Positions 20,101 to 23,100 of a DNA stretch of 64,000 bases are shown here, piece by piece; the first letter of the stretch is position 1; each line of letters opens with the position of its first letter. The DNA comes from Escherichia coli (lineage in GTDB: Bacteria > Pseudomonadota > Gammaproteobacteria > Enterobacterales > Enterobacteriaceae): NCBI RefSeq assembly GCF_003334305.1, contig NZ_QOWS01000004.1. One strand, given 5' to 3'. Position numbers: made by a program.

Positions 20101-23100
20101 AAAAGTTAAATTCTTAACCATCTTCACGCTTTCTATATTAATTACAAAAATGTCTTTCGCCAGTAGCGCTTGCTTTAATGAAGCAGGAACAATGTTCAGA
20201 ATCGAACCAAATTTGATTAAAGCTATCGCTCTTGTTGAAAGCAATCTAAAAAAGGATAGTATAGGGAAGAACAGAGATAAGAAAAACAATATAAAGAGTT
20301 TTGATTATGGTTTAATGCAGATAAACCAGATGCACATTCCCATGTTAAAAAAACGTGGAATAATAAAAGATGAACGAGATTTGTTAGATAATCCCTGCCT
20401 GAACATTAAAATAGGAACCGAGATTTTATATAAGCATTTTTCCCGTTGTGGAATGACGTGGCAATGCCTGGGGACTTATAATGCGGGTTTTGCAATGGAT
20501 AACCAAAAAAAGCGACTGCAATATGCCCAAAAAATATATATTGTATATACCAGGCTTAATGAACTAGACAATCGTAAGGCTTTAGCAAAATGAGCCTAAA
20601 GCCTCTTTTTTTTATATAGTGCACACACCCATACGTAAAGCTGTTTTGATCAACTCGATACCACTGTGAACATCTAATTTCTTCATGATATTGAGTCTAT
20701 GAGTTTCGACTGTTTTCCTGCTTAACTGCAAGAAATTAGCGATTTCTTTGTTTGTTTTACCATCAGCTATGAGTTGTAATATTTCTGACTCACGATTTGT
20801 AAGTTGATTATCAGAGGAATACCTGGAAGATATTTTTTCACAATCCATATGTACACTATCAAAATAAGTGTAACCATTACTAATCGAATCAATAGCACGA
20901 TTTAGTTTCGCCGGGTGACTGGTTTTCCATACGCATCCTTTCGCACCTGCTTCAAGCAATTTTATTGAATCAATATACGGCATCTTTGCTACAAATGTAA
21001 TAATATGAGCATCTATCTTATGCGATTTAACCCATTTTACGAGTTCGGACCCCATCATTCCACCTGCAAATTCTCCTAAAATAAATATTTAGGCTGAAGA
21101 TTTGTTACACTCCGCTATAGCTTTCTTCAGATCTTTATAGCCCCCAACAACCTCATATAAATCAGGATAATGTCCGAGAAATCCAATTATCCCATCAATC
21201 ATAAACGGCTGCTGATCTGAAACTACAATTTTAATTTTTCCCATATATTCATCCTGAGTGTAAATGCTTTAACGCATTCATTTATAATCATCCCTTCCAT
21301 TATTATTATAAGCAAAATCCAAAGAATACATTGATGAAATAATAATGAAATATAATTAAAAATAAAATTTTTGCGTAAAAAATACCACAGGCATTAAAAA
21401 ATCATGAGATGAGTAAAATATTACAATTAGATTATATTCAAATCATTAAACTTGAGCCAGGGAGCTATAAGTCCTCAGGGCTTGCCAAAACAGAATTATT
21501 CATATCCAAAGAATGTGTTTCAAACATTTTTTCAACTAAATAATGTCTGGCTTGTTCGCAGATTTCGTTAACCTTGTCAGGGGAGAAACAATGATTATTA
21601 ATTAAATATTGCTCACAATTATCCACAAATTCCTGCGGACTAAATTCAGCAATAAATTGATCGGTAAAAAACACAAAACGCTTATCATCATGAAATGTAA
21701 TATGGACATTCCATATTGATTTGTCGACAAAATATGACTCTACTTCAAGATACTTATCTTTGAATCTGGTAGGTATATAGAGATTTACAGGACCTGATAT
21801 TGCCGGTAATTTTTTTCTCCAACTTTCAAAAATTTTGATAAAAACATCAACTTCCTCTGAGGATTTTAACAATATACTCTTCAGATCGTTTATCATGTTT
21901 ATTCTTTTTTTTCTAGTTCTGAGCTCAACAAGCTTATCAAGGGTATAAAATTATCCATCACATCAATAATGCCTTTTGTATAGCCATCATAATAACCTTG
22001 AATAAATTTTTCTTCTCTCTTTACCTCAATGCTCTGAATTTTTGCGCTGGTTTCAAGAAGGATACTTTCTTTAAGAGAAACTATTTATTTCAATCCATCA
22101 GAAATTTTTCTTTTAATCACAACACCATTTGCAGGAGATTTATCAAGCTCATCTCTATTTTTTTCGCATAAAATGTAATTCTCTCTAAAAGAGTTGATGC
22201 AAGTGGTAACGGCAATTGTATGTGATCAACAAAATCAGGAAATAATAAATTAAATCGTTGCTGCATTGCCAATGGTTGTTGCCTTATATAGGGTGACAAC
22301 GTTGAAAAACCACATGTGATGATATTGTGATAGCTAGCGATGCCGGGTTTGTATCGTGCTTTTTCATTTATTTTCACCGGTATAGCTGATAAATAATCCC
22401 TTAGCACAGCAGGAACCTTATAAAAAAATCCGCGTTCTGCAAACCTTTCTCGATAAAAGTGATAACCACTGAATAAACAGAACAATGGAAATAAATTCCA
22501 ATTGTTTATGTAGTAAATAAGTGAACTATTCAGATTAAAATGTTCAACTGAAAGATTGTACTGCAGAACAATCATTTCATTGGTAATAGATCTAAGCACC
22601 GGATTGTTAATAGGTGTATTATTCAAGCTTACTCGTTGAGGATGAATATAACTAATTGGATCATATATAATCTTTCTTAGGGCAAGATTCATAACGCTCT
22701 CATATGTCTACTTAATTTTCAACCTGACTAAATTAGTTAGAATGGCCCTATACTTCCATAACAGCCAGCAAGTCGCTACGGATATTAATGCAAGTAAGAT
22801 AGAAACCGGCATAGCCTTATCATAAGCAAAAACAGGTTCGCTAATTTCATATGTTGGTGCTTGCTCAATAATGTCTCTTCGTTTTGACAATACAACAGAA
22901 ATATTTTCATATTGTACGCTTGCAGAGCTATTAACAATAAATCTCTTGATATCATTTATTTTTATTTCTGGGTTGATATCTTTTTCATATACTGCAAGTA
23001 CAGAAATATGAATTGGTAAAGCAGTTTTACCACTATCGCCATTATCAACATCGTAACTAACATGTACTCTCGAAGAAATAATGCCATCCATAATTTTGAG

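Follow-up and report, generated by a model that had tools for sequence, protein, structure and literature searches.

We analyzed a 64,000-nucleotide stretch of Escherichia coli DNA (NCBI RefSeq assembly GCF_003334305.1, contig NZ_QOWS01000004.1; hereafter, the window) with a focus on orgB (ygeN), a gene of the island that encodes the second type III secretion system of E. coli (ETT2). The comparison with intact alleles from other strains indicates that the window orgB is very likely a pseudogene that has been permanently inactivated in the lineage of this strain and is decaying through a combination of slippage and point mutation. In the cytoplasmic sorting platform, OrgB serves as the SctL-type linker; for the SctL family, the N-terminal region is predicted to bind SctQ/SctK, and the C-terminal domain to bind the SctN ATPase. 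In strains A10, CFS3273 and D8, the orgB position is occupied by a single coding sequence (CDS) of 708 nt that encodes 235 amino acids and has its ATG 59 nt within the 3' end of orgA. Alignment of the window orgB with these three alleles reveals exactly four inactivating sites, from which the lesions and their ancestral states are read directly. The locus, which lies entirely on the minus strand, is organized as follows (ORF, open reading frame; PGAP, Prokaryotic Genome Annotation Pipeline).

21465-22169, minus strand: whole orgB (ygeN) pseudogene, from the ATG at 22167-22169 to the stop at 21465-21467; 705 nt against 708 nt in the intact gene.
22158-22164, minus strand: A7 run, ancestrally A8, with a one-base deletion, five codons into orgB.
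22139-22141, minus strand: A3 run, ancestrally A4, with a one-base deletion, inside the orgA/orgB overlap.
22085-22087, minus strand: TAA nonsense codon, ancestrally GAA (Glu29), identified by alignment to the intact alleles.
21905-21912, minus strand: A8 tract with a -1 frameshift, ancestrally A9 encoding E-K-K-R.
21901-22084, minus strand: upstream open stretch of 61 codons plus TAA, equivalent to OrgB residues 30-90 and then out of frame.
21465-21896, minus strand: downstream 143-aa ORF, equivalent to OrgB residues 93-235; annotated by PGAP as "hypothetical protein" WP_001299900.1.
22113-22692, minus strand: orgA (SctK family) with a frameshifted 3' end; the present ORF ends at 22117.

The change of A8 to A7 at 22158-22164 yields ATG CGA AAA AAA TAG, that is, a stop after codon 4, and moves the 3' end of orgA into the orgB frame. 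The shift of the orgA 3' end is caused by the two 5' one-base deletions, and PGAP flags this gene as "frameshifted" in strain H15, the genome nearest to the window (99.98% identity over 50 kb, with 10 single-nucleotide polymorphisms and one indel). When all four lesions are repaired in silico, a 235-aa ORF is recovered in which 228 of the 236 codons (97%) are identical to those of D8.

The mid-gene lesion is the one that had been recognized by a sequence-only reading of this DNA, which placed the interruption of an OrgB/FliH-like gene exactly at the A8 tract and held that a 62-codon upstream stretch and the 143-aa ORF would fuse if the run were A9. The position and the coordinates are borne out by the sequence and by the alignment with the intact alleles. 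Around the break, the minus strand reads GAACTAG, AAAAAAAA, GAATAAAC and then ATG, with the A8 run at 21905-21912, which was also recovered by a separate homopolymer census. The 143-aa ORF extends from its ATG at 21896 to 21465, and in the other frame, upstream, 61 codons are open from 22084 until TAA at 21901-21903; insertion of a single A in silico joins the two into an open frame of 206 codons, as proposed. The break is placed at the A8 tract, and not by chance, because at this site the window differs from the intact alleles by one A only. The intact single 235-aa gene carries A9 in CFS3273 and D8 and A7CA in A10, and A9 is found in O157 as well. Residues 30-90 of the intact proteins are colinear with the upstream stretch, and the relationship of this stretch to OrgB, on which the proposal depended, therefore stands. 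As an explanation of the broken gene, the A8 tract suffices only in part: the loss of one base from A9 is real, but three further lesions are present in orgB. Repair to A9 alone would not restore the gene, given that the resulting 206-codon frame contains no ATG, GTG or TTG before codon 42, whereas the intact gene encodes 235 amino acids. The upstream stretch begins where it does owing to the GAA to TAA change at 22085-22087.

The spread of these alleles across 5,426 complete E. coli genomes was assessed by exact-match counts with 86-91-nt queries, with the following results for the mid-gene tract.

Window-type flanks with A8 (exact 90-mer): 1,237 genomes.
Window-type flanks with A9: 62 genomes, each with a single CDS annotated at the match.
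K-12-type flanks with A8: 375 genomes.
K-12-type flanks with A9: 409 genomes.

Thus, intact orthologues differ from the interrupted gene at the break only in the length of the run: D8, CFS3273 and O157 have A9, the window and K-12 have A8, and the flanks are identical within each haplotype. The comparison with the ygeN lesion of K-12 that the sequence-only reading had called for reveals the same A9 to A8 loss; removal of one A from the intact CFS3273 allele gives the K-12 allele without any substitution. Because the K-12 loss lies on a different flank haplotype, the A9 to A8 slip is independent on at least two haplotypes, and the A9 tract has accordingly slipped at least twice in E. coli. The TAA codon at 22085-22087 is also found in a large class of sequences with 98.0% identity, the size of which we estimate at about 1,300 genomes and which is set apart from the window by nothing more than the two 5' gaps. 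The A7/A3 pair produced by the two 5' deletions has exact matches in 18 genomes, the hosts of which are unrelated, and about 63 genomes are one position away from the window over a 99-nt 5' stretch. The one of these that was examined, strain 23AR0885, has A7 but retains A4, from which it follows that A8 was shortened to A7 first and A4 to A3 afterwards. In OkiPb01691 and VE-T10, both of which carry the window-type haplotype with TAA, the mid-gene A8 is replaced by A7, so that the tract kept slipping after the death of the gene. The mid-gene lesion is therefore fixed in its lineage and accompanied by additional inactivating mutations.

The assignment of this gene was addressed with the intact allele. 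The gene is a divergent OrgB/SctL homologue, although not an equivalog by the NCBI criterion: it matches the OrgB profile, has remote relatives that match this profile too, and occupies the expected position in the operon. The intact 235-aa protein shows significant, near full-length similarity to the NCBIfam OrgB model NF011850 (E=1.4e-14), with residues 18-216 aligned to profile positions 2-200 of 210. The 143-aa C-terminal fragment of the window alone matches the same model at E=1.6e-10 (profile positions 88-200), and the 61-aa upstream fragment alone has no significant NCBIfam match; within the intact protein, the N-terminal region adds about 13 bits to the OrgB score. A profile built from E. 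coli and E. albertii sequences recovers about 40 remote full-length relatives of 217-244 aa. All 10 of those tested match the OrgB model (E 1e-19 to 1e-53), and seven also match SctL/HrpE/YscL models, in six cases within the N-terminal half. PDB sequence searches, performed with a single protein and with a 7-sequence profile, returned chance matches only and no relative of solved structure. On the minus strand, the genes run eprH-eprI-eprJ-eprK-orgA, followed by orgB and then ygeK, which places orgB after the homologues of prgH-I-J-K and orgA. In the annotated genomes of H15, A10, CFS3273 and D8, orgB lies directly 3' of orgA (SctK), the identity of which is supported by TIGR02555 OrgA_MxiK (E=3e-64). 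The OrgB-like character perceived in the sequence-only reading is thus confirmed by the match of the intact allele to NF011850 and by the position after orgA. With OrgB from pathogenicity island 1 of Salmonella (SPI-1) and Shigella MxiN, SctL proteins that provide the link to the ATPase, the gene shares its place after the prgHIJK-orgA homologues, and the alignment of the ancestral 235-aa protein to the OrgB model runs from end to end; by comparison with these, the gene is very divergent (54 against 278 bits, with no Pfam or PDB match) and, in the window, is predicted to be non-functional. The ETT2 literature already names this gene orgB (PMC3977695), and a literature search under the name "ygeN" returned only unrelated papers.

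The decay is by no means limited to orgB. Lesions in the rest of the island were scored against D8, the ETT2 of which is nearly complete. Compared with D8, the window has a 1-nt deletion in ygeF, a -1 change in eprJ, a +1 change in eprI, two -1 deletions in epaS and early stops in epaO. In addition, eprH is disrupted.

24044-25225, minus strand: eprH (PrgH family) pseudogene with two frameshifts; PGAP note "internal stop".

The first eprH frameshift is a +1 change from T8 to T9 at 24766-24774, and the second is a compensating -1 change from A5 to A4 at 24675-24678; the second lies 92 nt downstream of the first, with five stop codons between them, and the length of the gene is unchanged. The sequence-only reading had counted eprH and orgB as two independent disruptions on homopolymers in one operon; the shift of eprH at a homopolymer (T8 to T9) is confirmed, but the disruptions in the operon number far more than two. 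The label "internal stop" assigned to eprH by PGAP masks the homopolymer origin of the lesion. Downstream of orgB, ygeK, which encodes a LuxR-type regulator, has a nonsense mutation at codon 52 (21089-21091) that splits it into 51-aa and 148-aa ORFs; an "internal stop" in this gene is also annotated in K-12 and CFS3273, whereas A10, O157 and D8 have it intact. The eivJ-eivF segment is absent from the island at about 30150-30240, between epaO and the glycoside hydrolase family 15 gene (pkgA). In D8, this segment contains the genes for the ATPase (SctN), the export gate (SctV), the gatekeeper (InvE-like), the secretin (SctC) and the EivF regulator; the annotation of H15 retains only a 120-nt remnant of eivJ. 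This loss agrees with the deletion that the literature reports as common in ETT2 (PMC3977695, PMC5422975). Across the island, four of the approximately 10 one-base indels fall in A/T runs of at least 8 nt, which make up well under 1% of its length, as would be expected if the indels arose by replication slippage. The runs themselves are not significantly enriched: the ETT2 segment, with 35% GC, contains 8 A/T runs of at least 8 nt against 5.2 +/- 2.3 expected under a first-order Markov model.

Taken together, these observations suggest the following succession of events. Replication slippage, to which the position of the lesions in homopolymers points, would have shortened the mid-gene A9 tract to A8, so that the frame terminates 3 codons later, and a G-to-T substitution would have created TAA at codon 29. 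Two single-A deletions at the 5' end that overlaps orgA, from A8 to A7 and then from A4 to A3, would have come later. The stops, the frameshifts and the state of the remaining island imply a probable loss of function, and the orgB relic would now be drifting neutrally in an island already devoid of the genes for the ATPase, the export gate and the secretin. Several points weigh against this reading. The OrgB score of 54.3 bits is far under the curated NCBIfam equivalog cut-off of 278, and a Pfam scan of the intact protein gives no match even at E<=10, FliH/SctL-type domains included. The ratio of nonsynonymous to synonymous polymorphism (pN/pS), 0.70 between the window and D8 compared with about 0.29 among the intact alleles, speaks for neutral drift, but the counts are small, with only 12 substitutions behind the contrast. 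In the PGAP annotation, neither orgB fragment is treated as part of a pseudogene and each appears as an ordinary CDS, and the 143-aa C-terminal fragment may still be produced at a residual level.

Other explanations of the interrupted frame have to be considered against this background. The A8 tract could be an A9 tract miscounted in sequencing or assembly, considering that homopolymer miscalls are frequent in long-read assemblies and that even near-identical records do differ, as H15 and the window do at 20442 in pbl, where they are separated by a 1-nt indel. However, the exact A8 90-mer comes from 1,237 complete genomes produced by many laboratories on many platforms, the 5' A7/A3 pair is identical across its 18 genomes, and genomes derived from the K-12 reference carry A8 too; because the A8 haplotype and the 5' deletions recur across genomes in this way, an artefact is for all practical purposes excluded. 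A biological alternative is a phase-variable contingency switch, in which reversible slipped-strand mispairing would toggle orgB, A8 being the OFF state. Tract lengths of A7, A8 and A9 all occur in the species, A9 to A8 arose on at least two haplotypes, and a second A8 tract, located where orgA and orgB overlap, varies as well, giving rise to 409-aa OrgA-OrgB fusions. Nevertheless, such a switch is very improbable in the window lineage. The distribution of the alleles is clonal, with 1,237 genomes of identical A8 sequence as opposed to 62 in which the same flanks enclose A9, the latter with intact annotation, and with A7 only as a rare derivative. An ON state is impossible in this lineage in view of the nonsense codon and the two additional deletions, inasmuch as A9 alone leaves the upstream stop and provides no start, and the segment that encodes the ATPase, export gate and secretin in D8 is gone from the island. 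Moreover, in the A10 lineage the tract is interrupted (A7CA) and the gene is intact, and A/T runs are not enriched in ETT2.

Rescue of the A8 frame by recoding, that is, by slippage of the RNA polymerase on the tract or by ribosomal frameshifting, as in Shigella mxiE, would yield full-length OrgB through the insertion of an A in some transcripts. Runs of 8-9 A/T are prone to transcriptional slippage, which can rescue disrupted ORFs (Baranov et al. 2005; PMC1088944), and K-12 has no lesion other than A8. In the window, however, the start and codons 1-29 are lost to the upstream TAA and the pair of 5' deletions, which means that repair of the frame at A8 cannot yield OrgB, and the split state is not conserved: orthologues from E. 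coli lineages and from E. albertii are single in-frame ORFs. The mxiE gene is likewise associated with a type III secretion system and split at an A/T homopolymer, but its split state is conserved and functional, whereas orgB was ancestrally in frame and its split allele in the window has suffered further damage; recoding appears extremely improbable here. The notion that the gene has been split and that the 143-aa C-terminal ORF functions by itself draws on the facts that this ORF has an ATG and a WP accession and that thousands of sequences are predicted to encode an identical product (P0016, P0017). The wide occurrence of the product is, however, accounted for by clonal inheritance, and the ATG is the internal Met93 of the ancestral protein, with no evident Shine-Dalgarno sequence in GAAAAAAAAGAATAAAC ahead of it. 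The fragment also lacks the N-terminal half, which in homologues carries the SctL/YscL-like region and which, in the SpaO-OrgB structure, holds the SctQ-binding N-terminus. Independent function of this fragment is very unlikely. Inactivation that is fixed in the lineage remains the reading that the combined lesions, their clonal spread and the state of the island favor.

Comparison with previously described ETT2 loci places the window allele in a familiar context. In K-12, the ygeN remnant of ETT2 orgB (b2857/b2858), which RefSeq labels "frameshifted", represents the same gene with the same tract and the same A9 to A8 loss; it differs in that A8 is the sole lesion and resides on another flank haplotype, with the nonsense codon and the two 5' deletions added in the window. 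In O157:H7 Sakai, ECs3713/ECs3714, the equivalents of b2857/b2858, form a split orgB with fragments of the same size class, namely ORFs of 432 bp and 261 bp (PMC3977695, Table 1), but A9 is kept and the frame is broken by one inserted nucleotide, GCTT[A]GCT, some 20 nt upstream of the tract. The title of Ren et al. 2004, as cited in PMC3977695, states "widespread mutational attrition" of ETT2 as the finding, and Leimbach et al. 2017 reported orgB, eprJ/eprI and epaO pseudogenes in a phylogroup-specific pattern (PMC5422975). The window shares with this attrition both the lineage-specific pseudogenes (orgB, eprJ/eprI and epaO) and the eivJICAEGF deletion, and we see no essential difference. The orgB lesion is, then, a known kind of decay in a system known to be decaying, and it has already been described; the addition made here, which is modest, consists of the full list of lesions, the allele counts per site and the repeated independent hits on the A9 tract.

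The locus also presents some peculiarities of annotation. Loss of an A from the A8 run in the orgA/orgB overlap (22139-22164) puts orgA in frame with orgB, and 409-aa OrgA-OrgB fusions, with the junction between ITFYAKK and IEMSLIK, are predicted in dozens of sequences (P0002-P0009). In the fusion represented by P0002, with 61 members, the allele is otherwise intact; the A7 of the window is instead followed by the second deletion and TAA. In H15, the orgB fragments are annotated as "hypothetical protein" (WP_001299900.1 and WP_146274757.1, the upstream one from an ATA codon) and, unlike the K-12 copy, are not flagged as a pseudogene. Outside this locus, pbl/ygeJ (20090-20593) is an intact ORF for a 167-aa lytic transglycosylase in the window but lacks one C at 20442 in H15, where it is labeled "frameshifted"; this may be either a real difference between the strains or an assembly error in H15.

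In strains with an otherwise intact ETT2, it is conceivable, although unlikely, that the orgB A9 tract and the A8 tract of the overlap are hypermutable switches that repeatedly turn the sorting platform off or fuse OrgA with OrgB. If so, the loss would be reversible or selected, and orgB would tend to be the gene hit first when ETT2 is inactivated, not a casualty of chance. In the window, the two CDSs that PGAP annotates as hypothetical proteins are fragments of one pseudogene, which matters mainly for annotation hygiene. With regard to the biology of the organism, the ETT2 of this very large E. coli lineage is predicted to be incapable of building a sorting platform. The orgB relic also provides a clean example of how AT-rich genes of horizontal origin decay, preferentially at long A/T runs; its A9 tract was hit independently in the K-12 lineage as well.
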